Origin: Geotalea uraniireducens Rf4
GTDB taxonomy: Bacteria; Desulfobacterota; Desulfuromonadia; Geobacterales; Geobacteraceae
NCBI RefSeq assembly: GCF_000016745.1
Contig: NC_009483.1
Span: 2,100,001 to 2,132,000, forward strand
DNA length: 32,000 bases
Reading direction: 5' to 3'
Below, one piece after another: positions 3,469 to 32,000 of the stretch. Below the pieces are notes generated by a model. It was not told the DNA's origin and did not search any database. It worked only from the letters and a program-made list of their open reading frames with translations. The number at the start of each line of letters is the position of its first letter. Within the stretch, counting starts at the first letter, position 1. A program made the translations under genes and the position numbers.

Positions 3469-3479
3469 GGAGATTCTGT

Positions 3480-4058
3480 ATGAATATAAGATTTTTATTG
3501 GCAGTTGTCGGTATATTATGTAACTCAATCTTGTTGTCATGTGGCAGCGATTTAGGAGGTGGATCGTCTGAATTCAACTCTGTCTTCCTTACCTCAAATA
3601 TTGGTGAATCAATTGTAGAGTCAGACATTGCCAAGCACAAGGCTGCGCCGGATTTTTGTACGTCCACTGATGATATTTCGATACCAGCTGCTGAAACAGT
3701 TGATATTGATGTAACTTCAAATGTTTATCCTAATAATTCAAATGCTGGCTTACTTTCGTCTGTAGAAATCAAATCTGCCACTATCAGTTATTCTCCAGTT
3801 ACATCTAACATACCTGTCATTCCTGTCCAATATGAGCCTTTAGGGGTTACTATTGCTCCTGGCGCCACTGCAACTATACCGATAACAGTAGCAAAGATGG
3901 AGATTAAACAGAGTTTGTTTAACGCATTGGTGTGTACAGGAACTATTTTCTCATATTATGTAACTATCAAAATTGATGCTTTAGAAACTAAAACTGGGAA
4001 GACAGCAAGTTTCGAAAAAATATTAACAGTATCTTTTTCAGATTGGGTGGATAAATAA
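3480..4058 (+). CDS. hypothetical lipoprotein (192 aa)
   Basis: The ATG lies 11 nt after the pilQ stop, preceded by AAGGAG (3467-3472). The signal peptide ends in lipobox LLSC. The mature part is beta-rich with no motif I recognise. The DNA is visibly more AT-rich than pilQ or the downstream giant gene. Confidence 0.7.
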   Translation: MNIRFLLAVVGILCNSILLSCGSDLGGGSSEFNSVFLTSNIGESIVESDIAKHKAAPDFCTSTDDISIPAAETVDIDVTSNVYPNNSNAGLLSSVEIKSATISYSPVTSNIPVIPVQYEPLGVTIAPGATATIPITVAKMEIKQSLFNALVCTGTIFSYYVTIKIDALETKTGKTASFEKILTVSFSDWVDK

Positions 4059-4143
4059 TTAGTTCTGAATGAATATTGCAATGTTTGCACCTGGCTTAGT
4101 GAATTAATTGTGAAGCTTCCAGTTAAGTGCCAAAGGGGATTGT

Positions 4144-7100: not shown

Positions 7101-9024
7101 TGTAGCTCCCACGGCGCTTGATTTCGGTACCATAGCCTTAAGCAATTCGAAGACAATGCCGGTGACCATTACCAATACCGGTAATGCCCCATTAAGTATT
7201 ACAGGAATTACCAATCCGGCAAATCAAGCATTCACGGTTTCCTATATCGGGACAGTACCGTTAACCCTCTTGCCGAACACAAGCTTTACGGTAATGGTTA
7301 CCTTTACATCCAATGTTGCCGGTGCATTCACCTCAAGCTTCATTATCAACACGGATGCTTCCAATGGTAATCAGACGATCAATCTGCAAGGAAACATGTC
7401 TAATTTTACAATTACGACGCCCTCTCTTCCCCAGGCGCAACTAAACGCTGCGTATAGCCAGACTTTGGCTGCCACGGGCGGACGAGTCCCTTATGCATGG
7501 TCGATTTCACAAGGTGCTCTGCCGACCGGACTGAAGCTTGCTTCCGCAACCGGCGTAATCAGCGGCAAGGTAACTGAGCCGGGAAAATATGACTTTACAG
7601 TACAGGTGACCGACTCCGATGGCAGCATTGCAACAAAGACGCTCTCAATTGCCACGGCAACAGCTGCGACGCCTCTATCCGTAACGACTATTAATATGCA
7701 AAGCGTGAACAATGGGGCTACCTACAGTCAACCGCTTTCCGCAGCCGGCGGCAATCTACCTTACAGCTGGTCTATAGTTAGCGGTACGCTTCCACCAGGT
7801 TTGAACTTGGACTCTGCAACAGGGAATATCAGTGGAACGGCTGGAGGCGGGGGAGACTATAACTTTGTTGCCCAGGTTATCGACAATAATCTGTCGTCTG
7901 CAGTCAAGCTACTTACCATAACGGTAAATAACAGTGCGGTGAGTTCAGGCACGGTGATTTTTACCGATGTGAACAGTGCGCAGATAAATAGTTGCGACTT
8001 CGGCAGCGTTCTCAGGGGGACAACAAGCCAGATAAAAACATTCAGACTACAGAATAACGGCGCAACGGATCTGGTCATTTCCGACTATTCCTTTGCTGAC
8101 CCTGCGTTTATGGCAATTATTGTCAAGGGCTCTACCTTAAAAGTCGGCCAATCGCTGCTGATTAACGTTTCATTCACTCCCCAGTCACTTAAGACCTATA
8201 CCGGCGATCTGACTATAACCACGCAGGTAGGAAGCAGTTACAAACTGCCGATCACAGGAACAGGCGCTACTGCAGTCGCCTCGGTTGCTCAGGGAAGCAG
8301 CGGCTCGACGTCCACAACTGCCGCATATTCTTTTACCTTGGACCCGACTACACCGTTGCTCAATACCACGGCAAAACCAACCGGTTTCACCATTGCCAAT
8401 GCTATTGCCACGCGGGTGGATAATGTTGTCCCATCGGGAACGGTAAATATCGATGTCGACTTTGAGTCGTTGCCTGCAAACCCTGTATTCTACAAGGTGG
8501 TCAACAATGTCTGGACTCAGGTCACACCTGTCAGTCAGAGTGGTAATAAGGTTACCATAGCACTCACTGACAATAATGCCCTGCTGGATGGGGACCCGAC
8601 GCCAGGAATCATCCAGGACCCGCTTGTGGTCGGCACTACCGAAGGTATAATTCCAGACCCTGTCGGCCCCCCAGGGGTAAACAACCCACCACCGTCATCT
8701 GGGGGCAAGAGCGGATGCTTTATTGCGACTGCAGCTTATGGCAGTTATCTTGATCCGCATGTCATGGTGTTGCGGCATTTCAGAGATAACGTGTTGTTGA
8801 AGTCTAAAGCCGGTACAGCATTCGTAAATTTCTACTATAAATACAGCCCGCCTGTAGCCGATTATATAAGAGACCACAAGGCATTGCGGATTCTTACACG
8901 TTTGGCTCTTACACCTTTAATTATTTCTGTAGAATATTTCTGGAGCTTTTCGTTTATAGTACTTGGAGGGATTTGTCTTACTTTATTCAGAATCAAACGG
9001 CGGCGCGAAATTTTGAGCACTTAG
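4144..9024 (+). CDS. giant surface lipoprotein (1626 aa): propeller-like repeats, choice-of-anchor-D/ASH-like domains, putative Ig (He_PIG-like) domains, and a C-terminal CFIATAAYG-box membrane anchor
   Basis: One uninterrupted 4881-nt ORF with lipobox VIGC (Cys22). Repeated blades (YFVVWEDYSNR..DIYAQY, IVIAWQDTRG, FLVAWEDLRGG, YFVAWQDGRAG..DIYGQY, FLGVWKDSRN..DVYGQRF) span about aa 75-665. Four tandem ~95-aa LDFG.V.VG....F.V.N.G...L.I modules span aa 672-1084, and a fifth spans aa 1268-1374. Two LP.A..NAAYSQ.L.A.GG..PY.WS...G.LP.GL.L....G.ISG modules span aa 1088-1261. The C-terminus reads CFIATAAYGSYLDPHVMVLRHFRDNVLL...FYYKYSPPVADYI, followed by a hydrophobic helix and RIKRRRE. Confidence 0.9.
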   Translation: MSMYKFLRNLLIVTMFGTVIGCSGSGNGLTGSNGAADGKRMAKLAGSEIIISGQGLNAFGSYTSATKEDQQNPQTIYLADKNVYFVVWEDYSNRNTSGSDIYAQYLAPDGKTIGLSFPVSIDPGNQTVPQVAYKMDPAGADSKIVIAWQDTRGTVNNGYVYFTHIPQGDIPASTAGAAFPPPAVAASTAVNFNAVEMNTVIANDSVTPNSKLVGNGDGTNTLFTASLLAPVIGGTVQVTVTGQAALTLDDNGFGGLIGTNGSGTIDYSTGKLSLSFSTPPNLNAQIVATYSYTRRTYINGTQVDNNDTLLSRKLPKVVYDSVGDRFWLAWVESRSLLNSVDEIAFEGPGLRNYRTKWNVGDNSLPGYVILKGDDLTQTTSMMGKSGADVLRNGLTRKNRLITNSSTGLQESYQYDFYTDINNLTIAVDSTSPEVLFSWEGIKQNGTLEIGCKDENTNSVCDTFEAITTDKFISTPQNGGVSHIYAIFGKEVNQAVIPSKWLDSGNSSGTAYKPTAAFDPISKKFLVAWEDLRGGVNTKIFGRLIYSGGGVYNTDFNITSSTDPTVTGSKQTSPTIAYDSVNQRYFVAWQDGRAGTVSTENLDIYGQYVDADGSLRGANYAISIAPGSQYSPSIAYNSATNEFLGVWKDSRNQAISGADVYGQRFTLGQPQLTLLNLDNTPFTPALLDFGSVTVGKSAYKSFKVRNTGDVALNITSVSTPSGPFTVTPQSTATLAPNAEQTFTVTYIPVSGSANSSFVISSDAETKTISLSGLGVSPTLTPASNNLQFGDVSVGQSSDQILTISNNGTATVNITNITGFSAPFSIVTPPAPPVPLAPGDSIQLTVRFSPTQAGTFTSNINIMTDLPSINQTIQLGGTGRQPLQTVSTTTIDYGIVTNGATKDLAFNIGNSGNTDLTVNSLTLSGTSAFTLVSPPALPLTVASGAVQTITIRFSPTALTTYNGTLNVVSNGGTQAITLTGQGAAGLISVAPTALDFGTIALSNSKTMPVTITNTGNAPLSITGITNPANQAFTVSYIGTVPLTLLPNTSFTVMVTFTSNVAGAFTSSFIINTDASNGNQTINLQGNMSNFTITTPSLPQAQLNAAYSQTLAATGGRVPYAWSISQGALPTGLKLASATGVISGKVTEPGKYDFTVQVTDSDGSIATKTLSIATATAATPLSVTTINMQSVNNGATYSQPLSAAGGNLPYSWSIVSGTLPPGLNLDSATGNISGTAGGGGDYNFVAQVIDNNLSSAVKLLTITVNNSAVSSGTVIFTDVNSAQINSCDFGSVLRGTTSQIKTFRLQNNGATDLVISDYSFADPAFMAIIVKGSTLKVGQSLLINVSFTPQSLKTYTGDLTITTQVGSSYKLPITGTGATAVASVAQGSSGSTSTTAAYSFTLDPTTPLLNTTAKPTGFTIANAIATRVDNVVPSGTVNIDVDFESLPANPVFYKVVNNVWTQVTPVSQSGNKVTIALTDNNALLDGDPTPGIIQDPLVVGTTEGIIPDPVGPPGVNNPPPSSGGKSGCFIATAAYGSYLDPHVMVLRHFRDNVLLKSKAGTAFVNFYYKYSPPVADYIRDHKALRILTRLALTPLIISVEYFWSFSFIVLGGICLTLFRIKRRREILST

Positions 9025-19749: not shown

Positions 19750-21168
19750 ATGCAGCGTATTGTTTTCGGCACATCAGGCTGGCGCGGAATTTTATGTGAA
19801 GATTTTATCTTCGAGAATGTCAAGATAGTAACCCAGGCTATTGCCGATCATGTGATTGCCGCTGGAGAAAAGGAAAAGGGCTTGATCGTCGGTTACGACT
19901 CGCGTTTTATGGGGGAGCGTTTTGCCAGGGAGGCGGCGCGGGTTCTTACCGGTGCCGGGATAAAAACGTTTCTCTGCAACAGGGATACCCCGACCCCGGT
20001 TATTGCTTTCGAGATATTGCGGCGCAAGACCGCCGGGGCTATAAATTTCACGGCAAGTCATAATCCACCCGAATATAACGGCATCAAGTTTTCCCCTTCA
20101 TGGGGGGGGCCTGCTCTTCCGGAGACAACCCATGACATTGAACGGCGGGCCAATGAAATGATGGGAGAGGTCTGCTATAAGGAGTGCCACCTGGACGATG
20201 CCGTCCGGGCCGAAATGTTGAGTGAGATCGATCCGATGAAGACCTATCTTGAAGACCTTGCCGGGAAGGTGGATTTTGCCGCCATCGCCAAACTCGGAAC
20301 GATAGCTGTCAATCCGCTCTACGGAACCGGTCGCGGTTATCTGGCAGAGCCGTTAATGGCACACGGCGTGAAGGTGGTACAGTTGAACGCTCATCGCGAC
20401 CCGTACTTTGGCGGGTTCCCACCCGAACCATCAGAGAAGTATATTCAAGATTTCATAAACATGGTGAAGGGTGATCCCGCCATCAAGCTGGGGATAGCCA
20501 CGGACGGCGATGCGGATCGTTTCGGTATTATCGATGATGACGGTACCTTTATTGAGCCCAATTACATAATAGCCCTGCTCCTTGACTACCTGGTAAGGGT
20601 GAAGGGGATGACGGGTGGTGTGGCACGCAGTGTGGCTACTTCCCACCTTGTCGATGCAGTTGCAAAAAAACACGGCATCGAGGTCTTTGAGACACCTGTT
20701 GGTTTCAAATATATAGGTGAACTGATCAGTCAGGATAAGATTATCATTGGCGGCGAGGAGAGCGCCGGACTTACCATAAAAGGGCATGTGCCGGAAAAGG
20801 ACGGCATTCTTGCATGCCTTCTGGTAGCGGAAATGGTTGCTCACGAGGGGCTGCCGGTCAGGAAACTTTTGGAAAGGCTCTATGAACAGGTGGGGCGCTT
20901 TGTCACCAAACGGGAAAACATCACCCTTCCACCAGAAATCGAAGCCGCTTTTGCCGACAAGTTGAAAGTAGCTCCTGCCACTATTGCAGGGGTAAAAATC
21001 ATGGAAAAGGTAACCATTGACGGCACTAAATTCATTCTTGAGGACGGCAGCTGGCTTCTTTTCCGTAAGTCCGGGACCGAGCCGGTTGTACGCCTCTATG
21101 CAGAGGCTCCGTCAGAAGTGCGTCTCAAGGAGCTGCTGGCCGCTGGTCGCGAGTTGATTCTCAGTTAG
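19750..21168 (+). CDS. phosphoglucomutase/phosphomannomutase family (alpha-D-phosphohexomutase)
   Basis: 472 aa with active-site loop FTASHNPPEYNGIKF, metal loop GIATDGDADRFG, sugar loop GGEESAG and phosphate loop FRKSGTEP. AAGGAGAGG lies upstream of the ATG. Confidence 0.9.
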   Translation: MQRIVFGTSGWRGILCEDFIFENVKIVTQAIADHVIAAGEKEKGLIVGYDSRFMGERFAREAARVLTGAGIKTFLCNRDTPTPVIAFEILRRKTAGAINFTASHNPPEYNGIKFSPSWGGPALPETTHDIERRANEMMGEVCYKECHLDDAVRAEMLSEIDPMKTYLEDLAGKVDFAAIAKLGTIAVNPLYGTGRGYLAEPLMAHGVKVVQLNAHRDPYFGGFPPEPSEKYIQDFINMVKGDPAIKLGIATDGDADRFGIIDDDGTFIEPNYIIALLLDYLVRVKGMTGGVARSVATSHLVDAVAKKHGIEVFETPVGFKYIGELISQDKIIIGGEESAGLTIKGHVPEKDGILACLLVAEMVAHEGLPVRKLLERLYEQVGRFVTKRENITLPPEIEAAFADKLKVAPATIAGVKIMEKVTIDGTKFILEDGSWLLFRKSGTEPVVRLYAEAPSEVRLKELLAAGRELILS

Positions 21169-21331
21169 GAGCCTGTCGGACTTAGGAATGAATCTACTGC
21201 GAGGATGGCAAATCGGTCCATATCTCCGTAAATTTTCGACGAATAGGTCCACTATTCGCTCTCAAATTTCCGGAAATCTGTCCTCGATTTTCCATCCTCT
21301 CGCTACGATTCCCTAAGTCCGACAGGCTCCT
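21167..21331. repeat. ~165-bp imperfect palindromic element with perfect 20-bp terminal inverted repeats
   Basis: AGGAGCCTGTCGGACTTAGG (21167-21186) is the exact reverse complement of 21312-21331. The arms stay about 75-80% complementary inward (e.g. CGAGGATGG / CCATCCTCTCG, AAATCG / CGATTT, CGAATAG / CTATTCG) down to a central GTCCAC loop near 21248. The element begins inside the stop codon of the phosphohexomutase gene. Confidence 0.8.
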
Positions 21332-21433
21332 GCTCCAAATTTGCATAATGTAAACTGATGGCAATGCAACGGCGCGAAGCCGCAAAGACAGCCCGTATGA
21401 CGGTGGGCGCAAGCATTTTCGAGCATGCTTTCT

Positions 21434-21462
21434 TTGCGTTCTTTGCGCCTTTGCGTTATAAT
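21434..21462 (+). promoter_or_regulatory. candidate sigma70 promoter of nifU-nifS
   Basis: TTGCGT (21434-21439), a 17-nt spacer, then TATAAT (21457-21462), 30 nt upstream of the nifU ATG. RBS GAGGAGG lies at 21481-21487. Three CTTTGCG heptamers (21432, 21441, 21449) overlap the -35 box and spacer. Confidence 0.6.
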
Positions 21463-21491
21463 GAGCTGCCAATAAAATACGAGGAGGATGT

Positions 21492-22352
21492 ATGTGGGAT
21501 TATACTGACAAGGTTAAAGAACATTTCTTGAATCCAAGGAATGTTGGTGCAATAGACGATGCGGATGCTGTCGGTGAAGTCGGGAGCCTGGCCTGTGGCG
21601 ACGCCCTGAAACTTTTCATCAAGCTCGATGAAAAGAAAGAGCGGATAGTTGACGCCAGGTTTCAGACCTTTGGCTGCGGGAGCGCCATCGCCTCTTCTTC
21701 GGCCTTGACCGAGATGGTGAAGGGAAAGACCCTCGATGAGGCATTGCAGATCACCAACAAGGAGATTGCCGACTTCCTTGGCGGCCTCCCGGAAGAAAAG
21801 ATGCATTGCTCCGTCATGGGGCAGGAAGCACTGGAGGTGGCCATCGCCAAATACAGAGGCGTGGCGGTGCCGAAGCACGATCACGAGCATGATCACGGGG
21901 AGATGGAAGGGGAGATCGTCTGTAAATGCTTTGGCTTGACCGACGTCTTTCTCAAGAAAGTCATCGCTTCCAACAAACTGCACACCGCTGAACAAGTCAC
22001 CCATTTCACCAAGGCGGGGGGCGCCTGTGGCGGCTGCATTCCCAGGATAAAGGAACTGATTGCCGAGGTCATGGGTGAGCAGAAGAGGGAAGAGCAGAAA
22101 AAACCCGAAAAGCTTACCAATTTGCGCAAGATGCAGCTTATCCAGGAAACCCTGGAGAATGAAGTGCGGCCGCAGCTGTGGGCAGACGGTGGAGATCTGG
22201 AACTGATCGACATCGATGGCGGCAAGGTACAGATAGCTTTCCGCAAGGCTTGCGCCGGGTGCGCCTCTTCAGGTTTCACGGCAAAATTCGTCGAGCAGAA
22301 GCTGCGTGATCTGGTCTCCGACGACATCACCGTTGAGGAGGTGCAGGGATGA
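21492..22352 (+). CDS. nifU: NifU-type Fe-S cluster scaffold (three-domain)
   Basis: 286 aa. The N-terminal IscU-like domain reads YTDKVKEHFLNPRNVG..GEVGSLACGDALKLFIK...FQTFGCGSAIASSS...MHCSVMG. A central Cys-rich domain (CKCFG..., GGACGGCIP) and a C-terminal Nfu domain (GGDLELIDIDGGKVQIAFRKACAGCASS) follow. Confidence 0.93.
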   Translation: MWDYTDKVKEHFLNPRNVGAIDDADAVGEVGSLACGDALKLFIKLDEKKERIVDARFQTFGCGSAIASSSALTEMVKGKTLDEALQITNKEIADFLGGLPEEKMHCSVMGQEALEVAIAKYRGVAVPKHDHEHDHGEMEGEIVCKCFGLTDVFLKKVIASNKLHTAEQVTHFTKAGGACGGCIPRIKELIAEVMGEQKREEQKKPEKLTNLRKMQLIQETLENEVRPQLWADGGDLELIDIDGGKVQIAFRKACAGCASSGFTAKFVEQKLRDLVSDDITVEEVQG

Positions 22353-23538: not shown

Positions 23539-23576
23539 AAAAACCCCCTGCAGCTGAAGCTGCAGGGGGTTTTTTG
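23539..23576. terminator. bidirectional rho-independent terminator between convergent nifS and the cytochrome gene
   Basis: AAAAA, stem CCCCCTGCAGC (23544-23554), loop TGAA, stem GCTGCAGGGGG (23559-23569), then TTTTTT. The A- and T-tracts on either side allow termination in both directions. Confidence 0.85.
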
Positions 23577-23594: not shown

Positions 23595-26500
23595 TTACCA
23601 AGAATCGGAACTGTGGTTTTTGCTATGACAAGTTCCCGTACAGCTTCCGGAACCGTTGCCAAGCCGGGTGAAATTCATTCCGGCACCATCCCCACTAAAA
23701 TTGATTATTACATCTGCATCGGTATGGGTAACTCTGTTTCCGGGTCCATGCGCATCTTGCGGACTTCCCGCCGTGCCATGGCATGTTGCGCATGTTACCT
23801 GGTGATCACTTCTGGAATGACCATTTTGTATATCGGGAAATACAGTTCCTGTCGGTCTGCCATCAGCGCCGCCATGGCACGATCCGCAGCCGATGCCGGG
23901 AGCGGCTTTTGTATGGCATCCCTGGCAGTCGGGTGGATTGCCGGAAGTAACAGGGTAGCCTGTTGTTTTGGTATTGCTGTGGCAACCGGTTGTCACGCAG
24001 CTTGGGAATGGCGATGCGCCTGAATCTGTTTTATGCCCGTAGTATGCCGGATAGGAATGGCGCGTAAAGCTGAAAGCTTTGTTGTTGGTAGTGGGGGCAT
24101 CACCATCATGGGTATGGCAGATGGTACAGCGTGTGTTTATGTTGTGAGTGGTATCATAACTGTTGATGTTATAATGAGAGACTCCGCTGCCATGGCAGAC
24201 TTGGCAAATTCCTGTAAAGTCGGCCTTGACGTAGTCTCCGCCGATTGGCGGGTTTGAAGATAAGGTAAATACCGGGTCTTTTGGAGCTGCAAATTCGGTA
24301 GGCACGCCGGCTGTCGGTAAGTAGCCTGTTGATGGGTCGAAGACACTGGAGTTCTTCACTACCTTTTTGTGGATCATGTAGGCGTTGGTGTCACCATGGC
24401 CATCATGGCAGTCCCAACAGAAGAGGCCACCGGATTTAAAACCGAAGCTGTGGCTCGTACCGTTATGTACGGCACCGACTTTTTTGCCGGAGGTCTTCAA
24501 TGCGCCACCGATTGTAACTGTAACCCCCACAGCGTCTGTTTTATGACAGTTCATGCAGGCATCGTTTAACCCCCAACCGGTCCCACCAGTATTCCCCCGG
24601 AGCCGGAAAGGATTTGCCGCGGCGTTGTGGCTAATGGCCGGGTCATGGCAGTATTCACAGGCATTGACAACGACAAGGGCGGCCGCTCCATTGCCGGAGG
24701 CATAAGTCCCGCTGGTCTTGCCGTGACCGGTGGTAGTCCATTCGGTCATGTTTATCTTCGCTACAGGACTTGAGGTGTTGAAAGGGGTAGAGGTAACGTT
24801 TGTGAAGGGGATGGTGAATACATCGAAATCCGCCGTATCCCCATGACAATCCTGGCAGTTCAGAGTTGTGCCCCACGTTACTGTAGTTGGAGAGCCGCCG
24901 CCACCATGGCAACTGACGGTGCTGCATTGAGTCGCTGTGGTGTCGGTTCCCTGACGTGCCAGGGTGAAAGTCACTGAACCGCCGCTCTGCTGAATGTTGT
25001 ATGCCTGATTGACATGCAGTGTCGGGTTTATGATGGCGCCTGCATTGTTTACTACTGAGTTGTGGCACTGGTAGCAGGAATTTATGTTGTTGCCGGTATG
25101 TTTAGCGTGGCTGTTTGCTTTTGAAACGGCGGTTGGTGAACCTGAAGCGGTACCACCGCCATGACAGCTGCCGCAGTTTATCGACGGAGGGGTAGTCCAC
25201 GAAAGAGTCCCATGGGTCGGGGTGGCGAAGACGGCGCCGTCGCTGTGGCAGTAAGTGTTGATGCACTGGGTGCCGGTGCTGGACCAGGTGGTGCGAAGGA
25301 TAGCATTATAGGAAAACGCCACATCCTTAACCCCGTTCGGATGCTGATTTTTCCCTGAAGCGCCGTTGATGGTCGCATTGTCGGAAGCGGTTCCAAAATG
25401 GCAGTTCCGGCAGGTGAAGGTGTAGGTGTTGACATGCTTGGTGTGGGGCGCTGACCAAGTAGGTGAAGCATCTCCCTGTTTGTTGTGGCAGACTCCGCAG
25501 TTGGAGCCGCCGACCTGCGCAGTTCCCCAGTTGACGGCCACTTTGGGGGCGCCGCCGTTGCCGTCTGTGTGGCAGACTGTGGTGCAGGTGCCTGCCGTCG
25601 TGTATTTCATGCCTTTAGGGTCAGTGGCCGGTGTGCCGGCTTCGGTGTATGCAGTTATTTTGAGCCCTCCCACCTCTGCCGCGCGGTTTGCCGTTGCCGG
25701 GCCGTTGGCGTGGCTGTTGGTCGGATGGCAGTTCTTGCAGCCGTAGGCGTAGGCTGATGATGTGTGGGCGTTGCTGCCGGTTATGCTGCTGAACACGGCA
25801 GCAGAGTTGTAGTGAATGGCATGACCGGTGGCTCCTGCAGAGAGATCGCCGTTATTGCTGGCGCCGTGGCAGGAATTGCAGACAAGATGTGCACCGCCCC
25901 AGGTCGGAGCGGCGGAACCGTGGCAGTAGGTCGCCGAGCATGAACCGTAACCTGAGCCGGGGGCGACGTTGTTACCCAGGGAATAGACGGTGTTGACGGC
26001 TGACCCGGTGAATGCCAGGTTGATGACCTGGTTGGCGTGATTGGTCGTACCTGAACCGGCACCGCTATGGCATGTGGAGCAGGGCAATCTGCCATTGCCG
26101 CTGCCGGTAGTGTTGGCGTGCGCCACATGGCTGCCGGGGGCGGAAACGTCGGTGTCCATTTTCACATGACAGCTGCCGCACGGGAAGAGACCGCCCCAGG
26201 TCGGCGTACCGTTTTGTGTCGGGGCTCCGATGCCGTTTGTCCCCTGCACATTGCTGTGGCAGTAGCTGTTGGAGCAGGAGCCGTATCCGTTTCCGGCCGG
26301 GAGATTCGCCTGGGAATAGATTGTTCCTGTTGCTGACGGGCCGCTGAATGAGTTTTCAATGACGCCGTTTGCATGGAGCGCTGTGCCGGCCCCTGCGCCG
26401 TTGTGACAGATTGAGCAGGCAATGCCGGTAGCCTGGGCATGCTTGATATGACTGCCGGTTGCCGAAGCGCTTGAGGACATGTCCACATGGCAACTGCCGC

Positions 26501-28430
26501 AGGTAATGGTCACGCTCCCCCAGACCGGAGATGCAAAAGCTGTTGGCGCACCATTGCCGTTTGCTCCCTGCACATTGCTGTGGCAGTAGATGCCGGAGCA
26601 GGTGGCAGCAGATACGGTCCATGTGCCGCCTGTAGTGAGCGTACCTCCGAACCGTACATCCTTGACGCCATTGGCATGGGTGTTGAAATCCTTGATGGCG
26701 TTGTTGCTGCTGACCGTCCCGTTGTGACAGACAGTGCAGCCGATGGAATCGGCGAGATGCTTGCCGTGGGAATTGGTGGCAAGCGTCGTAGCATCGCCGT
26801 GACACTGCCGGCATTCATCCGGCTGGCCGACTATTGCCCCCCTGCCGTTCGCCCAGCCGGGGATCGTCTTTGTCGTCAGCACCGGCACAAGAGACGCATT
26901 GCGCGGCGCGCCATCGCTGTGACAATAGACGTTTGAACAGGTCGGCGCAGTGGCTGGCGTTCCGTTGAAGGTGGGAGTGGCGCCGAAGGAGGAAGCGATC
27001 CTGCCTGTAGTGTCGATAAATACATCCTGGAAGGTGCCGGCCTGGTGGGTATTACCCTGGTGGCAGTCAACACACTGCTTGCTGTAAACGATCCCGCCGG
27101 AATGGGTGATGTGGGCGCTGGAGGATTCATTGGTGAAGGGTGACGGAGTGCCGTTGAATACCGCATACCCATTCGGACCGCCTGCACTATTGCCGTGGGG
27201 CGGATAACCATGGCAGGTGTTGCATGCGCCGATGGCTGTGAAAGAGCCTTTGGTATTGCCGTGGAAGTGGCAAGCGTTGCAGGTCGTCGTGTCGAGCCTA
27301 GCGTGTTCGTCAGGATAACCTGAGCCGACCGGAACGTCGTGGCATGATTGGCAGACGCCGTTGCCGGAAGCATCCTTGTAGTTCTTGACCGTAGTCGACT
27401 GGAAGTAGACCGGCTTGTTTTTTGCGGAGCGCAGGACAGTCGAGACGTTCATGTAACGCCTGACCAGCCAGACGTTCGGGATTCTTTGCTGTGCTGTTAC
27501 GGCATTGGGGTCGAAATCCACGTGGCCGCCGTGGCAGTCGGCACACTGGATGTTCTGGTTTCTGCCGTTATGGGCCACCTTGCCGGCATGGCAGTTGGTG
27601 CAAATGTTGAGATCGTCGGCATTTGCGCCGTGCAGATCGGTTCTGAGCAGGCTGCCGTCCGACGGTTTGAGTGCGTTGAAGCCGGAATTGTTGTCAAAGG
27701 TGGCGCTGCTGGAGTCGCTGTAATGGACACCGTGGCAGGTGCTGCAAACGAGGGAGCCGCCTGTGCGGGTCAGTCTTGCATTCAGGTCGGAGGTCGGGTT
27801 TGTCGTGTTGGCATTCACCGGCGGGTTGTTGAATTGTGCCGGGTTTGTTTTGACCTTGGAGGTTGCGCCCGTATAGTTGAAGTTTACCGGGTGGGTGCCG
27901 GTCGTATGGCTTTGCTGGTTTCGGCTCCTGTGGCAGTCGAGGCACATCTGGTCCCGGTCGTTCGCCATGCGCAGGAAAGGCTTGTTGGTGTTGTCATGCT
28001 GGTTGTGACAGCGGACGCAGGCCAGGCTGCCGCCGGTCCTGGCACGCAGCTTGTTTCCCGTGCCGGTCGAGGTCATGGCGGCGAATTGAGGGGGCTGCGC
28101 GCCCGCCTCATCGACCTCGTCCGGTCCGTTCCAGTTGTGGGATGTCTGGTAGAGCGTGCCTGTGCGGGTTGCCGTGTAAGTGTTGAACGGATTGGCGAAA
28201 TCTGCCGGGGTAAAGGGTTTGTTTCCGGCCTTCGGCACCCCCGGACGGTGGCAGTTGAGGCAGACGTTGTTATAGCCGGTGCTCCCCAGGTCCAGATGTA
28301 AGGTATGGCAGCTTGCGCAGCTATAGCCGTTGGCCGTGTCATGGGGCGAATCGACTGTTACCGCTGTTGCCAGGGACGGGAACAAGCAGAGGATGCCGAT
28401 CACAAGGCTTTTAATATGCAATCTGTTCAT
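23595..28430 (-). CDS. giant secreted multiheme c-type cytochrome (~1611 aa, ~41 heme-attachment motifs)
   Basis: My hand count gives 32 CXXCH, 7 CX4CH (CSNVYCH, CSGIYCH, CSNSYCH, CSATYCH, CINTYCH, CSTVSCH, CVTTGCH) and 2 CX3CH (CTTVCH, CTGTCH). The N-terminal part has paired-CXXCH spacing. The centre repeats a CX4CH...CXXCH...CXXCH module, the Geobacter 'CxxxxCH...CXXCH' repeat as I recall it. I prefer ATG 28430 (MNRLHIKSLVIGILCLFPSLATA|VTV, a Sec signal, with GGAG 6 nt upstream). The maximal ORF extends to 28475. Confidence 0.93.
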   Translation of the reverse strand: MNRLHIKSLVIGILCLFPSLATAVTVDSPHDTANGYSCASCHTLHLDLGSTGYNNVCLNCHRPGVPKAGNKPFTPADFANPFNTYTATRTGTLYQTSHNWNGPDEVDEAGAQPPQFAAMTSTGTGNKLRARTGGSLACVRCHNQHDNTNKPFLRMANDRDQMCLDCHRSRNQQSHTTGTHPVNFNYTGATSKVKTNPAQFNNPPVNANTTNPTSDLNARLTRTGGSLVCSTCHGVHYSDSSSATFDNNSGFNALKPSDGSLLRTDLHGANADDLNICTNCHAGKVAHNGRNQNIQCADCHGGHVDFDPNAVTAQQRIPNVWLVRRYMNVSTVLRSAKNKPVYFQSTTVKNYKDASGNGVCQSCHDVPVGSGYPDEHARLDTTTCNACHFHGNTKGSFTAIGACNTCHGYPPHGNSAGGPNGYAVFNGTPSPFTNESSSAHITHSGGIVYSKQCVDCHQGNTHQAGTFQDVFIDTTGRIASSFGATPTFNGTPATAPTCSNVYCHSDGAPRNASLVPVLTTKTIPGWANGRGAIVGQPDECRQCHGDATTLATNSHGKHLADSIGCTVCHNGTVSSNNAIKDFNTHANGVKDVRFGGTLTTGGTWTVSAATCSGIYCHSNVQGANGNGAPTAFASPVWGSVTITCGSCHVDMSSSASATGSHIKHAQATGIACSICHNGAGAGTALHANGVIENSFSGPSATGTIYSQANLPAGNGYGSCSNSYCHSNVQGTNGIGAPTQNGTPTWGGLFPCGSCHVKMDTDVSAPGSHVAHANTTGSGNGRLPCSTCHSGAGSGTTNHANQVINLAFTGSAVNTVYSLGNNVAPGSGYGSCSATYCHGSAAPTWGGAHLVCNSCHGASNNGDLSAGATGHAIHYNSAAVFSSITGSNAHTSSAYAYGCKNCHPTNSHANGPATANRAAEVGGLKITAYTEAGTPATDPKGMKYTTAGTCTTVCHTDGNGGAPKVAVNWGTAQVGGSNCGVCHNKQGDASPTWSAPHTKHVNTYTFTCRNCHFGTASDNATINGASGKNQHPNGVKDVAFSYNAILRTTWSSTGTQCINTYCHSDGAVFATPTHGTLSWTTPPSINCGSCHGGGTASGSPTAVSKANSHAKHTGNNINSCYQCHNSVVNNAGAIINPTLHVNQAYNIQQSGGSVTFTLARQGTDTTATQCSTVSCHGGGGSPTTVTWGTTLNCQDCHGDTADFDVFTIPFTNVTSTPFNTSSPVAKINMTEWTTTGHGKTSGTYASGNGAAALVVVNACEYCHDPAISHNAAANPFRLRGNTGGTGWGLNDACMNCHKTDAVGVTVTIGGALKTSGKKVGAVHNGTSHSFGFKSGGLFCWDCHDGHGDTNAYMIHKKVVKNSSVFDPSTGYLPTAGVPTEFAAPKDPVFTLSSNPPIGGDYVKADFTGICQVCHGSGVSHYNINSYDTTHNINTRCTICHTHDGDAPTTNNKAFSFTRHSYPAYYGHKTDSGASPFPSCVTTGCHSNTKTTGYPVTSGNPPDCQGCHTKAAPGIGCGSCHGGADGRPTGTVFPDIQNGHSRSDHQVTCATCHGTAGSPQDAHGPGNRVTHTDADVIINFSGDGAGMNFTRLGNGSGSCTGTCHSKNHSSDSW

Positions 28431-28496
28431 GTTGCGCTCCTGAAAAAGCAAAAAAATCATTGTGTTGCCCGGCACTCGATGAGTCGGTTGCTCATC

Positions 28497-29003
28497 TTAA
28501 ATAATCGACATGGTAAAGGATGCTGTTAATCCTGTTATATCTGCGCCGTTGAGATCTTTGGTCTTAAACGTTGCCTGATTAATGCTGAAATCCGTTGCCG
28601 ATGGAACGCTTCCGGTTATGTTGCAGGTAACGGTGGCAAATTCTCCAGGATCGAAACCTGCTGCTACGACCATTTTTATAGTCAAGGTGGCCTGGCTTCC
28701 GGTTGTTGCCGGTGTGAATATGGAATCAATGATTGGAACAACAGTACCGGTGGCGGTTTGTCCGGAAGGAGAGATAACCCCGGAAAGAACTTTGCCCGTC
28801 GCGTCGGTCGGAACCGTTACCCCTGAGGGCAGAGTTATGGTTATGTTGTCGATTGCACCGATCTTTCCTGTTGCCAAGGTTCCCTGGGTGCTTAATTTTA
28901 GTACCGCGTGCCTGGTCGTCGGCTCGGGGGTTCCGCTGCCACAAGCGGATAACAGAAGGAAGGAGGCTGATAAAAGAGTGAAAAAAAATAAAATGATTCG
29001 CAT
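28497..29003 (-). CDS. hypothetical lipoprotein (168 aa), all-beta-looking
   Basis: The signal peptide ends in lipobox LSAC. The mature ~147 aa is rich in T/G/S/V with alternating hydrophobic residues. It lies 37 nt downstream of the NHL gene and 66 nt upstream of the cytochrome start, on the same strand. Confidence 0.75.
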   Translation of the reverse strand: MRIILFFFTLLSASFLLLSACGSGTPEPTTRHAVLKLSTQGTLATGKIGAIDNITITLPSGVTVPTDATGKVLSGVISPSGQTATGTVVPIIDSIFTPATTGSQATLTIKMVVAAGFDPGEFATVTCNITGSVPSATDFSINQATFKTKDLNGADITGLTASFTMSII

Positions 29004-29040
29004 GGTACCCTCTTTGTTTTATTAAGACTAAGCGCAATGA

Positions 29041-31761
29041 TTAGAAGTTGGTTAAACCCACAACCTTCCTCAGAATGACCAGAACATCACCTGTATCGAT
29101 CTTCCCATCCGGTGTCGGCACGCCGCTTATTAACGGAGCGACATCGCCGCGCAACAGTTCATCGCTGGTTGCCACGTCAAATCCCATGGCTATGCGCATC
29201 GCCTTGAGCGCATCAACGAGGTCGGGTTTACCGCTGCTGCTGTTGATGTCGCCGTTCCGTGTGTTGTTGCCTGCGGCATCGGTTGCGCTGATGTTAAGCG
29301 GTGCTGCTTCGCTGCCGGTCAGGGTTACGCTCCATGAGCCGCTATTGTCGATGGTGGCAGTGGCGACCACGGTGCCGTTTTTGTCTTTTACCGTCAACAC
29401 CGATCCCGTGTCGCCGCTTCCGGTTATGAGCGTCGGTGTCTGAGTTGTGACCACCAGGTTCGGCGGGGTAATCTTGTAAAAGAGGGTGCGGAAGGTCGTA
29501 GTGGAATTGCCGAGCGCATCCACGGCGGTAATAGCCAAGGTGTACTTATCTTCGGTTGATAAGTTCGGAGTTATGCCGAAGTCGCTTCCCTGCGGCTGGA
29601 AGTCGACCGGGATACTGACACCGTCGATGGAGGCCGATACGCTCTCAGCGACGGTAGTGCCGGTTACAGGGAAGTTCGGGTCGTTGGTCATGCGGTCCTG
29701 TGGCGGTGAGGTCACCGCCAGTGGCGGTTTTGTCAGGTCATTGAGGAACACGGTGCTCTTTGCGCCGGCTGTTTTGCCGGTCAGGTTGTCGGTGGTTGCC
29801 GCCTCGATGGTATAAATGCCGACCAACTGGTTAAGGCTGACCGTTGTGGACCAGGTAGTGCTGTTGAGAGAAGCTTGTGCAATTCCGTTAACTTTTACCA
29901 CTGTCGTGCTGTTGGCAGGTGCCGTGCCGCTTACCGTCACGGTAGAAGTATTGATGTTGGCCCCGTCCGTCGGCGCGGTTATGGTCACGGCCGGACTTGC
30001 CGGATCGTAGGTGATGGTTCTCGCGTCGGTTGTCGTATTGCCGAGCGGGTCTGAAGCGATGACGGTTATGGTGTTTGAGCCTCCGCTGAGAAGCAGGGCG
30101 GTGCTGAACACTCCATCCACCGTATTTGCCGTCTGGCCGTTAACCTTGACAGTGGAGACGGCAGGATCGGTCAGGCCGGTGACATTGAGTATCGATGAAC
30201 TGGTCGTGCTGTTGGAGCTTATGGTTGAAACCGTCAGGGACGGAGGTGTGGTGTTCATGGTTATAATTACGCTCGCGACGGCGCTGTCGCTTCCCGCTTT
30301 GGAGGCGGTTACCGTAATCAGGGTATCTCCTGCAATCAGACCGGTAATGGTACTGCTCCAGGTGGTAGGCGTCGGATTTGAAACCGGACCGGGTGTTGCC
30401 GCGGTATTACTGGTTATCGCGATGGTTGCCCCCGCATCCATGGTGCCGGTGATGGTCTGGGTAGGGCTGTTGGTCGGTGTTGTCACCGGGTTTATGGCCA
30501 GCGTTGTCGCCAAGGGGTTGAAGGTGACGGAGACTTTCTTTTGACTGGTATTGGCAGCCCGGTCTGTGGCCGTGACCGTGATTTCGTTTGCTCCGTTGAC
30601 CAGGCCGGAAATGGTGCTGCTCCAGGTTGTAGGCGTCGACAGGACGACCGGTGCGGCTGTGGCGGCTGTATTGGTCGTAATGGTAACGACCGCCTCCGCT
30701 TCCACCGTTCCGCTGATGGTTACGCTGCTTGAGCTGGTGATTGTCGGCGGGGGGGCTACGAAAAGCGTCGGTGGTGTTGTGTCGGCGATTGGAGTGGTTC
30801 CGCCGTTGATGCCGTAAACTGTCAGGTTGCCGAACCCATTGACGACCAGCAGTCGGTTGCCGAGGGAATCGAATAAGACGTCCGACGGAACGACAAGCTT
30901 GCCGTTCGCAGTGCCATAGTTGCCTATGAATCCAAGCTGTGTGCCTGTACCGGCTGGATCGAGTACCTGGACATTGCTTTGGAAGGAATCCACAACGTAC
31001 ATCCTCATTAGTACGGGAGAGGTATCCTTGCTGTATTCGAAGGCTACAGCCTGCGGCGAAGTAAACTTAAGCGGGCCGGAACCGGAGGAGCCTATCGATT
31101 TCAGAAAAGTGCCGGCAGTATTGAAGAATTGAACCCGGCCGTTAAGGGTATCCACCACTGCCAGTTGTTTGGAGCTCTTCTCAAAGGTTATGCCGGTCGG
31201 TATGGAGAACTGTCCCGGAAGTTTTCCCGTGGTGCCGAAACTATTGGCAGGCTTGCCGGTGGCGGCATTACCGGTGGTTACCGTGGTGCCGGCAGCATTG
31301 AATACCTGAATGCAATTGTCGAGGCTGTCCACCACATAAATGAAGCCTGCGGCATCCAGAGCGATGCCGTTGGCCATTTTGAACTGCCCGGCGCCTTTAC
31401 CCAGCTTGAACTTTTCCTTGCCTGTATTGTCCAGTACGGAGACAAAAGTCCCCTGGCCGACAATCAGGTCGCCTCCTTGGGTCACGGCAATTCCCTGGGG
31501 TGTTTTTACCGGGAGGGTGGCGATCAGACTGCCGGAACTGTTGTATTTAAGGATTCCGCCCCCTCTCGGGTCGGTCAGGTAGAAATTGCCGAACTGGTCG
31601 GTGGCGATTTTGATTGGAGCGCTGATTCCCGTCTTTATCGGCGGATCTATGACTTTAACCAGCGGCGCTGTTGCGCTGAATGCCATTTTGACAGGTAAGA
31701 TACACGTGAGCGCAGACAAGATGACGCCCAGAGTTATGAGTTTTCTTGAGACAGCTGTCAT
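29041..31761 (-). CDS. secreted NHL-repeat beta-propeller protein with six Ig-like domains and a C-terminal dockerin-like module
   Basis: I prefer ATG 31761 (AGGAGG 9 nt upstream; signal MTAVSRKLITLGVILSALTCILPVKMAFSA). NHL-like blades span about aa 55-335 of the long ORF (P.GIA.D..G..YV.D...N.IQVF pattern: GNFYLTDPRGGGILKY, GFIYVVDSLDNCIQVFN, QLAVVDTLNGRVQFFN, MYVVDSFQSNVQVLD, RLLVVNGFGNLTVYG). Six ~85-aa Ig-like modules span about aa 345-852 (PP.L.V......T....V.ISGT......V.V). The tail reads GDINSSSGKPDLVDALKAMRIAMG...GDVAPLISGVPTPDGKIDTGDVLVILRKVVGL. Confidence 0.88.
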   Translation of the reverse strand: MTAVSRKLITLGVILSALTCILPVKMAFSATAPLVKVIDPPIKTGISAPIKIATDQFGNFYLTDPRGGGILKYNSSGSLIATLPVKTPQGIAVTQGGDLIVGQGTFVSVLDNTGKEKFKLGKGAGQFKMANGIALDAAGFIYVVDSLDNCIQVFNAAGTTVTTGNAATGKPANSFGTTGKLPGQFSIPTGITFEKSSKQLAVVDTLNGRVQFFNTAGTFLKSIGSSGSGPLKFTSPQAVAFEYSKDTSPVLMRMYVVDSFQSNVQVLDPAGTGTQLGFIGNYGTANGKLVVPSDVLFDSLGNRLLVVNGFGNLTVYGINGGTTPIADTTPPTLFVAPPPTITSSSSVTISGTVEAEAVVTITTNTAATAAPVVLSTPTTWSSTISGLVNGANEITVTATDRAANTSQKKVSVTFNPLATTLAINPVTTPTNSPTQTITGTMDAGATIAITSNTAATPGPVSNPTPTTWSSTITGLIAGDTLITVTASKAGSDSAVASVIITMNTTPPSLTVSTISSNSTTSSSILNVTGLTDPAVSTVKVNGQTANTVDGVFSTALLLSGGSNTITVIASDPLGNTTTDARTITYDPASPAVTITAPTDGANINTSTVTVSGTAPANSTTVVKVNGIAQASLNSTTWSTTVSLNQLVGIYTIEAATTDNLTGKTAGAKSTVFLNDLTKPPLAVTSPPQDRMTNDPNFPVTGTTVAESVSASIDGVSIPVDFQPQGSDFGITPNLSTEDKYTLAITAVDALGNSTTTFRTLFYKITPPNLVVTTQTPTLITGSGDTGSVLTVKDKNGTVVATATIDNSGSWSVTLTGSEAAPLNISATDAAGNNTRNGDINSSSGKPDLVDALKAMRIAMGFDVATSDELLRGDVAPLISGVPTPDGKIDTGDVLVILRKVVGLTNF

Positions 31762-31879
31762 AATGCAACGCCTCCTGGCTTTTCTTTGTAGCACGTCGAT
31801 CCGTAGGGGTAGACACATTCCATTGCAAACAAGGTTCGAGAATCTATGTTTGCGCTAATACGCATGCAGTCATGCATTG

Positions 31880-32000
31880 CTACCAGTTTTTGGTTCCATG
31901 GCAAACGCCGATCGAGAAACCTGATGGAAGTTGACCCGGAGAGCAGGTTGCGGTTGCGCCGTTTTTGGTGTAATTGACCGGACCCCTGATGGTCAGCTGC
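31880..32000 (-). CDS. 3' end of an upstream minus-strand ORF (partial), possibly another heme protein
   Basis: The minus-strand frame is open from the window edge: QLTIRGPVNYTKNGATATCSPGQLPSGFSIGVCHGTKNW*, with the stop at 31880-31882. It contains one CH dipeptide preceded by a Cys 13 residues earlier, and it ends in W like the giant cytochrome. The evidence is very limited. Confidence 0.3.
   Translation of the reverse strand, partial: QLTIRGPVNYTKNGATATCSPGQLPSGFSIGVCHGTKNW

Follow-up and report, generated by a model that had tools for sequence, protein, structure and literature searches.

The genes analysed here, three neighbours on the minus strand of Geotalea uraniireducens Rf4, encode a protein with an NHL propeller, an immunoglobulin (Ig)-like stalk and a dockerin-like tail, a small cohesin-like lipoprotein, and a cytochrome with 41 heme motifs; they span positions 23595–31761 of the window, by which we mean the whole stretch of 32,000 nt that was analysed. 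The closest described conduit is ExtEFG of G. sulfurreducens (GSU2726–2724), a porin-cytochrome (Pcc) cluster whose genes are followed by those for YedY and the Hox hydrogenase. For G. uraniireducens, Gura_1839/1838/1837 was published as a Pcc cluster (Shi et al., 2014): Gura_1839 is porin-like and 53% identical to GSU2726 (ExtE), Gura_1838 is the cytochrome partner, grouped with GSU2725 (ExtF), and Gura_1837 an outer-membrane cytochrome whose heme motifs are atypical. MtrCAB/OmcA of Shewanella also combines a porin and lipoprotein cytochromes with an extra surface cytochrome, and MtrC domain II/IV is matched in our locus; however, the Mtr cytochromes are decaheme lipoproteins instead of a 41-heme non-lipoprotein chain, and Mtr has neither an NHL stalk nor a cohesin-like anchor. 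The 41-heme protein would be expected to line up closely spaced c-hemes in a long linear chain, and such chains are also represented by the OmcS, OmcE and OmcZ polymers and by the dodecaheme GSU1996; OmcE is a filament-forming cytochrome. Here, in contrast, a single polypeptide would hold all 41 hemes and need no polymerisation, its length being set by the number of repeats.

NHL genes beside CxxxxCH/CxxCH cytochromes are already known, as for Gmet_0556. In Gmet_0556–0558 (NHL + OmcP + OmcO) and in the GSU2884 region (NHL + OmcA), members of the same NHL/Ig/dockerin-tail family of about 900 aa are encoded directly before such cytochromes, with an OmcE/OmcP-like tetraheme gene or nothing between the NHL gene and that of the 27-heme cytochrome; the cluster in the window differs by its heme-free cohesin-like lipoprotein, its 41-heme cytochrome and its fusion to an ExtE-type conduit cluster. 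A preliminary description of this DNA had called the role of the NHL proteins uncharacterised, which does not wholly hold: in a preprint, Gmet_0556 is cited for its importance in extracellular iron reduction. The NHL protein GSU2505 adjoins omcS, and one paper suggests that it is needed for OmcS assembly or expression. NHL proteins have also been drawn inside the cytochrome clusters of Desulfovibrio ferrophilus and ‘Ca. Tenderia’.

Cohesin and dockerin modules are known outside cellulosomes as well and have been discussed as adhesins in archaea of the ANME (anaerobic methanotrophic) type and in their sulfate-reducing partners, and a soil transcriptome paper lists dockerin annotations in Geobacter FN3/multicopper genes. 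The two folds predicted in our locus match both cellulosomal and non-cellulosomal pairs (types I and II of C. thermocellum; the Archaeoglobus fulgidus cohesin 2xdh). As in those systems, the dockerin would stand at the C-terminus of varied proteins and the cohesin on a cell-bound anchor, and some relatives have tandem cohesin-like domains. The anchor here, in contrast to the SLH- or sortase-anchored scaffoldins of cellulosomes, would be a lipid-modified single-domain Gram-negative lipoprotein; furthermore, neither module belongs to its Pfam family (Cohesin or Dockerin_1), an insert sits in the second dockerin repeat, the displayed proteins include some from redox clusters, and the pairing is a predicted one.

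By our analysis, the three genes appear to close a porin-cytochrome cluster of the ExtE/ExtF type, of whose six genes they would be the distal half. In order, the six encode a porin-like (431 aa), a pentaheme (157 aa), an octaheme (344 aa), an NHL/Ig/dockerin (906 aa), a cohesin-like (168 aa) and a 41-heme protein (1611 aa). A cluster that unites a conduit, an NHL stalk tethered by cohesin-dockerin binding and a heme wire is, with slightly better than even confidence, our best explanation. The porin and the two small lipoprotein cytochromes would pass electrons through the outer membrane, and the 41-heme protein, a putative secreted single-chain heme wire of the OmcA/OmcO (TIGR01904) type with a 27-heme core and a variable 14-heme extension, would take them from the conduit on to insoluble acceptors. 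The stalk protein, whose propeller and about six Ig domains suggest a length of ~25–30 nm, would dock by its C-terminal dockerin module on the cohesin-like lipoprotein of the next gene and thus be tethered to the outer membrane; its propeller could then hold or position the cytochrome wire, or a mineral or partner surface. We infer surface exposure, the flow of electrons from conduit to wire and the propeller’s ligand, as well as co-transcription across the 118-nt gap between the octaheme and NHL genes.

The preliminary description took the three genes for a module without a porin. This was an artefact of the window end, because the putative conduit genes were found directly upstream on the same strand, just past it, and because both halves occur together in related loci. 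Between the NHL start codon and the window end lie 239 nt, the last 121 of which code for the C-terminus of another gene; the frame there (...SIGVCHGTKNW*) is identical to the C-terminus of a 344-aa protein on contig L083. Two features were thus recorded at this end:

31880–32000, minus strand, gene of the octaheme lipoprotein cytochrome (ABQ26027, 344 aa), 3′ end with 39 codons and the stop
31762–31879, minus strand, spacer of 118 nt between the octaheme gene and the NHL gene, holding the AGGAGG ribosome-binding site of the NHL gene

No promoter-like or terminator-like site was detected on the minus strand of this spacer, and its equivalent in the related locus L002 measures 161 nt. The upstream genes were read from G. 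uraniireducens contigs bearing an identical NHL protein. Three same-strand genes precede the NHL gene there, for the porin-like 431-aa protein, the pentaheme lipoprotein and the octaheme lipoprotein; the 431-aa and 157-aa genes overlap by 4 nt, and gaps of 24 and 118 nt follow. The pentaheme protein has the lipobox LITA-C and five CxxCH motifs, the octaheme protein the lipobox LWG-C and eight motifs, including an atypical CSNVSCH. Both genes are kept beside the porin-like gene in ~27 loci, so that the cluster has the ExtF-like lipoprotein cytochrome expected of a porin-cytochrome conduit. The 431-aa protein has a signal peptide and no Pfam family; its family gave weak matches below threshold, all to barrels or porins (OMP_b-brl 10/20, BBP2_2 3/20, DESULF_POR1 6/20, Opr porin 4/20), and a PDB profile search with it returned no match.

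The upstream genes are probably the published ExtE/ExtF-type Pcc cluster Gura_1839–1837. Judging from consecutive accessions, gene order and protein features, Gura_1836 would then be the NHL gene, Gura_1835 that of the lipoprotein and Gura_1834 that of the 41-heme protein; the 431-aa protein would be ABQ26029. The third gene encodes an octaheme lipoprotein here and a periplasmic dodecaheme cytochrome in ExtEFG. The octaheme protein and the giant cytochrome have a CxxxxCH/CxxCH building block in common, which may bear on how the two meet. In locus L084, all six genes stand in a row, followed by nifS.

Sixty-three loci had enough flanking sequence to be counted for a porin-like gene upstream and a lipoprotein gene downstream of the NHL gene. 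Both were present in 17 loci and both absent in 33; 4 loci had the porin-like gene alone and 9 the lipoprotein gene alone (Fisher p = 8e-6, uncorrected for phylogeny). Homologues of the porin-like and pentaheme genes were found together upstream in 21 of these loci, 17 of them also with the lipoprotein, and it is in 17 loci that the six-gene order recurs. In L002 (1–7053), from a related metagenome genome, two more CxxxxCH/CxxCH cytochromes are encoded upstream of the six genes; one has 741 aa and 18 heme motifs, the other has 851 aa and is cut off by the end of the locus. Because these precede the cluster, the region appears to be a larger cytochrome island beside nifS/nifU.

Within the window, three minus-strand open reading frames (ORFs) cover 23595–31818, and the genes and the hairpin behind them were placed as follows:

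29041–31761, minus strand, NHL/Ig/dockerin-tail gene (906 aa, Sec signal peptide, ABQ26026)
28497–29003, minus strand, cohesin-like lipoprotein gene (168 aa, lipobox Cys21, ABQ26025)
23595–28430, minus strand, 41-heme cytochrome gene (ABQ26024, 1611 aa, a non-lipoprotein with a Sec signal peptide)
23539–23574, no strand assigned, GC-rich hairpin with a 16-bp stem, flanked on either side by A/T runs and lying between the stop codons of the cytochrome gene and nifS

The deposited records ABQ26024, ABQ26025 and ABQ26026 of the same strain match the three proteins exactly. The NHL gene starts at an ATG preceded by AGGAGG (its longest ORF extends to 31818), and the cytochrome gene at an ATG preceded by AGGAG (longest ORF from GTG 28475). 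On the sequence we verified what had been proposed of this gene group: the same strand, gaps of 37 nt (NHL/lipoprotein) and 66 nt (lipoprotein/cytochrome), a ribosome-binding site before each gene, Sec or lipoprotein signals, and an end at the hairpin, which by its sequence is bidirectional and terminator-like and is shared with the convergent nifS. The proposed products, a 906-aa NHL/Ig/dockerin-like protein, a beta-rich lipoprotein of 168 aa and a 1611-aa protein with about 41 hemes, were likewise borne out, with 41 motifs counted and eight strands in the lipoprotein model. A search for riboswitches and other RNA elements found no Rfam family at gathering score in the window, the 118-nt gap included.

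The 168-aa protein carries the lipobox LLSA-C21 with the signal MRIILFFFTLLSASFLLLSA-C21-G, as bacterial lipoproteins do, and Cys21-Gly22 is invariant across its 32 relatives. No Pfam or NCBIfam family was found for it. Its AlphaFold2 (AF2) model is an eight-stranded beta-sandwich with a predicted local distance difference test score (pLDDT) of 81 (86–93 in most of the folded domain). Searching the PDB by Foldseek with this model, we obtained cohesins as 19 of the top 20 matches, 16 of them at a probability of 0.9–1.0, with E-values of 0.01–0.07 and template modelling (TM) scores of 0.34–0.51, normalised to a query that includes the signal peptide. By its model the lipoprotein thus resembles a cohesin at the level of the fold only, with modest TM scores. 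A PDB profile search with the family gave one match, 4peu (‘uncharacterized protein’, E = 3.6e-5), which lay partly over the signal peptide.

The family evolves fast: a word-indexed search found just six relatives, and by an iterated profile the genes for 160–190 aa downstream of NHL genes were all recognised as the same lipoprotein family, in ~30 loci. A full HMMER scan of 1.84 billion representatives yielded 932 clusters at E ≤ 1e-3, of which 554 reached E ≤ 1e-10. A few members (P0268, P0320 and P0401, of 307, 568 and 754 aa) have two or three tandem cohesin-like domains and look like scaffoldin-like versions. The OmcP-like tetraheme protein of other loci was considered as a substitute for the cohesin and rejected; it is a four-heme protein of the OmcE/OmcP type and has no match to the lipoprotein profile.

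The last 75 residues of the NHL/Ig protein are conserved across its family. Their AF2 model (pLDDT 90.5) has helices at 17–27, 35–41 and 59–70, and the top 15 Foldseek matches in the PDB were all dockerins (TM 0.54–0.84), superposing with a root-mean-square deviation of 1.4–3.0 Å in 14 cases and 8.3 Å in one. The modelled tail thus shows the dockerin fold, two loop-helix EF-hand-like repeats with a linker helix in ~70 aa. A PDB search with a profile of 12 tails also gave top matches that were almost all dockerins or dockerin-bearing proteins (E 0.009–0.09). Many relatives have a canonical first calcium loop, such as GDLDGDGTVSIRD, and the second repeat bears a conserved insert, GDVAPL-x-NG-x-P-x-PDG. 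Residues D7, D19, D42 and D61 are invariant, and D58 occurs in at least 90% of the sequences. The earlier suggestion of a dockerin-like tail is therefore upheld at fold level by AF2 and Foldseek, without a match to Dockerin_1. Elsewhere in the window, neither a second cohesin-like protein nor a second dockerin-like tail was found.

The lipoprotein and the tail proved to be linked beyond the NHL proteins. The two distant relatives of the lipoprotein that were found first (in L003 and L004) follow large proteins, neither NHL nor cytochrome, with the same tail at their end. When metagenomes were scanned with the lipoprotein alignment, 35 loci with 951 ORFs came up, chosen by lipoprotein similarity alone. 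The tail profile matched 26 of these ORFs; every one lay directly upstream of a lipoprotein gene and had the tail at its extreme C-terminus. Conversely, 24 of the 26 lipoprotein genes with a usable upstream ORF had a tail-bearing neighbour. The carriers are mutually unrelated and include Lcl_C/Flg_new proteins, Kelch propellers, TIG/FN3/Ig proteins, a thermolysin-type M4 peptidase and a multicopper oxidase. Altogether a tail-bearing gene with the lipoprotein gene next to follow was seen at 30 loci of the genomes and 26 of the metagenomes.

The strongest case for pairing the two is made by these gene neighbourhoods: the tail is there whatever protein bears it, so that it is the tail, not a cytochrome, that the lipoprotein accompanies. 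As far as the models allow, this fits a cassette of a dockerin-tagged protein and a cohesin-lipoprotein anchor, and their folds would predict physical cohesin-dockerin binding between tail and lipoprotein. Most likely, then, the lipoprotein anchors the NHL/Ig protein by this pair, and not the cytochrome. The earlier idea that a lipoprotein anchor holds the cytochrome at the surface keeps its anchor and its tail but loses the cytochrome as cargo. We found no paper linking a cohesin-like lipoprotein with the dockerin-tailed NHL proteins of Geobacter cytochrome clusters, and the cohesin-dockerin reading of the two appears to be new; as a prediction it has good support from folds and gene neighbourhoods. 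In one metagenome locus (L089:2001–3273), two tandem cohesin-like lipoprotein genes have no tail gene upstream, the sole exception among the evaluable loci of that set. Another locus, L064, has a second cassette of tail protein and lipoprotein (438 aa + 195 aa; 19791–21695, minus strand) on the strand opposite to its NHL locus.

The 906-aa protein belongs to a family of ~900 aa that aligns end to end, with 298 full-length relatives in the protein search. It divides into three parts:

30787–31644, minus strand, NHL six-bladed beta-propeller, ~aa 40–325 (Pfam NHL, SGL and DUF5128; matches to TRIM71, TRIM2 and Pizza propellers)
29269–30774, minus strand, stalk of about six Ig-like domains, ~aa 330–831 (Pfam Big_13, Glucodextran_B and Big_6)
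29044–29268, minus strand, C-terminal dockerin-like module, aa 832–906, 75 aa (AF2 and Foldseek)

Pfam NHL (PF01436) scored 40.5 bits against a cut-off of 20, and the NHL structures of TRIM71, TRIM2, Brat and Pizza matched this region in the PDB with E-values down to 1e-24 (TRIM71). In the stalk, Glucodextran_B matched three times (best at 507–586), Big_6 twice (best at 767–839) and Big_13 once (341–413).

A genome scan with the alignment of this family as query, using one genome per species, gave 78 loci, nearly all in Geobacteraceae or Desulfuromonadaceae, with cytochromes of 22–56 hemes downstream of the NHL genes. As stated in the preliminary description, NHL genes beside very large cytochromes recur in Geobacter; they were seen in dozens of Geobacteraceae loci. 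The NHL gene is followed in one arrangement by a heme-free protein of 160–190 aa and then a cytochrome of 22–56 hemes, and the three genes recur across relatives as a tightly linked unit. In another it is followed by an OmcE/OmcP-like tetraheme protein (270–310 aa) and a 27-heme cytochrome, as in Gmet_0556–0558, and in a third directly by a large cytochrome of 19–27 hemes, as at GSU2884. The 22 loci of the tetraheme arrangement (L011, L013–L016, L021 and ~16 more) retain the tail on the NHL protein without an adjacent cohesin-like gene. A further group of loci (L068, L076 and L080; also L069, L072, L078 and L079) matched over the first ~300–450 NHL residues alone. Their ORFs of 375–652 aa look propeller-only, with most of the Ig stalk missing, and do not match the tail profile; a 23–27-heme cytochrome usually comes directly next, and an ExtE-like porin gene stands upstream in three.

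The 1611-aa cytochrome has 41 C(X2-4)CH motifs (32 CxxCH, 2 CxxxCH and 7 CxxxxCH, the last spaced ~110 aa) among a total of 83 cysteines. It is by sequence a member of the curated CxxxxCH/CxxCH-domain family of the OmcA, OmcO and OmcH type (TIGR01904: 131.2 bits in 7 stretches, cut-off 27; PF09698: 76.6 bits, cut-off 21.7), with further Pfam matches to Cytochrome_C7 and MtrC domain II/IV. Its G. sulfurreducens relative is OmcA (GSU2884), with 45% identity across the first 47% of the protein. No dockerin-like tail was found on it. The first ~1050 residues hold 27 hemes, like many relatives of 1000–1170 aa, and the last ~550 residues add 14; covalent heme at all 41 motifs and an extracellular site are predictions only. 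Known multiheme wires measure roughly 1 nm per heme, so by analogy the 41-heme chain could reach some tens of nanometres. The proposal of a single-chain heme wire fits the family but is not novel: TIGR01904 is curated, and a 2024 survey of Desulfuromonadia cytochromes predicted OmcA, OmcH and OmcG as long extracellular single-chain nanowires. The hematite-binding motif [ST]-hydrophobic-[ST]-P-[ST] does not occur in the three proteins, and shuffled sequences predict zero as well.

A comparison with the cytochrome of L084 (L084:6532–11397), a relative whose DNA is 97–98% identical over the alignable flanking stretches, delimited one more feature:

23931–25583, minus strand, variable cassette of the cytochrome, ~aa 950–1500, ~14 hemes

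The two alleles are 98.6% identical over residues 1–900, ~44% over ~950–1500 and 88% over 1501–1600, and each has 41 heme motifs. The cytochrome thus looks like a mosaic in sequence, its distal third resembling a cassette replacement or the outcome of diversifying selection; no donor of the cassette was found among the proteins retrieved in the analysis.

Several observations weigh against a cohesin-dockerin tether within a six-gene cluster. Pfam Cohesin (PF00963) matched neither the window lipoprotein nor its 32 relatives at E ≤ 1, and Dockerin_1 (PF00404) did not match the 75-aa tail even at E ≤ 10. The Foldseek E-values for both modules were just 0.01–0.3, and the TM scores of the cohesin matches 0.37–0.51 with the signal peptide in the query. 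The first calcium-binding loop of the window tail is degenerate (DINSSSGKPD against DxDxDGxxxxxD in relatives). The genome loci contain 63 tail-bearing ORFs, with few exceptions NHL/Ig proteins, and 30 of these lack an adjacent lipoprotein gene: an OmcE/OmcP-like tetraheme comes next in 22 cases and a 19–27-heme cytochrome in 8. Nothing callable stands downstream of a further 3. The assignment to Gura_1834–1839 does not come from the tags of the record, and no expression or localisation data were found for the genes of the cluster.

The same observations can be read in other ways. If the three genes were a self-contained, porin-less surface module in which the lipoprotein anchors the cytochrome, independent of any porin-cytochrome conduit, the tight gene spacing and the terminator at the end would be accounted for, as would the 9 of 63 loci that have the lipoprotein but no same-strand ExtE-like porin gene upstream, and the 118-nt gap before the NHL gene could contain a promoter of its own. 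The ExtE-like porin and two lipoprotein cytochrome genes directly upstream, here and in 17 lipoprotein-bearing loci, nevertheless make this improbable; the lipoprotein family also adjoins dockerin-tailed non-cytochromes, so that it tracks the tail, and the cytochrome bears no such tail. We give a little more credit, though still consider it unlikely, to the idea that tail and lipoprotein are a sorting or secretion pair, in which the lipoprotein reads a C-terminal tag and aids export or release, leaving the NHL protein free or attached elsewhere. C-terminal sorting domains exist in other systems, and the extreme C-terminal position of the tail and the small lipoprotein as next gene, whatever the carrier, would suit such a pair; some half of the NHL proteins with a tail have no lipoprotein encoded beside them, as fits a shared partner of a catalytic type. 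However, the folds predicted for tail and lipoprotein are those of two partners known to bind with high affinity and used for anchoring, and some members of the lipoprotein family have two or three tandem cohesin-like domains, in the manner of scaffoldins.

That the assembly is periplasmic, with the lipoprotein facing inward and the stalk and the 41-heme chain spanning or organising the periplasm from inner-membrane quinol oxidases to the ExtE-type conduit, agrees with the default orientation of Gram-negative lipoproteins, with the plain Sec or lipoprotein signals of the three proteins and with estimated lengths of stalk and heme chain that approach the width of the periplasm. We hold it to be rather unlikely, as the other carriers of the tail are typical exoproteins or adhesins (M4 peptidase, multicopper oxidase, Lcl_C, Flg_new, Kelch), the relatives OmcA, OmcH and OmcG were predicted by others to be extracellular, and the cytochrome's distal third proves hypervariable when near-identical strains are compared, which would suit an exposed part. 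The NHL/Ig protein might instead serve chiefly in the assembly or stability of the giant cytochrome, rather than as an adhesin or positioning stalk, in line with the role suggested in one paper for GSU2505 beside omcS and with NHL/Ig genes preceding CxxxxCH/CxxCH cytochromes in all three locus arrangements. A 500-aa Ig stalk with a dockerin-type anchor would be odd for a chaperone, and we find this unlikely as the chief function; it overlaps with the tethered-stalk explanation without excluding it. The six-gene cluster with a conduit, a tethered stalk and a heme wire is the explanation we retain.

Kinds already described include the cytochrome, the NHL protein beside it and the conduit upstream, and we found no paper that names Gura_1834–1836. 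Few parts of extracellular electron transfer in Geobacter are as poorly understood as the giant cytochromes of the OmcA/OmcO type and the NHL proteins next to them; mutants of such genes have phenotypes, but to our knowledge nobody knows how the proteins are held or arranged. The proposed tether is a concrete and easily testable hypothesis, since it involves two small soluble domains whose binding should depend on Ca2+ and be sensitive to EDTA. A lipoprotein family that counts over 900 sequence clusters and has so far no annotation would gain a name and a likely role, and the tail would offer a natural plug-in tag for protein display on electroactive bacteria. A ‘porin-less’ module that is in fact the outer half of a porin-cytochrome cluster would also change how such clusters are delimited in genome surveys.

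A broader proposal, to which we give slightly less than even chances, is that Desulfuromonadota and the hosts of the metagenome cassettes share a general cohesin-dockerin surface display. A cohesin-like lipoprotein, single or sometimes tandem, would anchor any dockerin-tagged exoprotein, be it a peptidase, a multicopper oxidase, an adhesin or the NHL/Ig stalk, and in Geobacteraceae the stalk would organise giant single-chain cytochrome wires at ExtE-type conduits. If true, this would bring a ‘cellulosome-style’ principle of assembly into extracellular electron transfer. At least 17 loci other than the one in the window have the genes for the NHL/Ig-dockerin protein, the cohesin-like lipoprotein and the giant cytochrome after an ExtE-type cluster.

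At its other end (634–9024, plus strand), the window contains a further group of genes for surface proteins:

634–3468, plus strand, PilQ secretin gene
3480–4058, plus strand, gene of a 192-aa lipoprotein
4144–9024, plus strand, gene of a 1626-aa non-cytochrome surface protein

The 1626-aa protein has no cohesin-like kinship and no dockerin-like tail, and the length of its ORF equals that of the cytochrome ORF by coincidence. It carries a C-terminal GCFIATAAYGS motif together with a hydrophobic helix.

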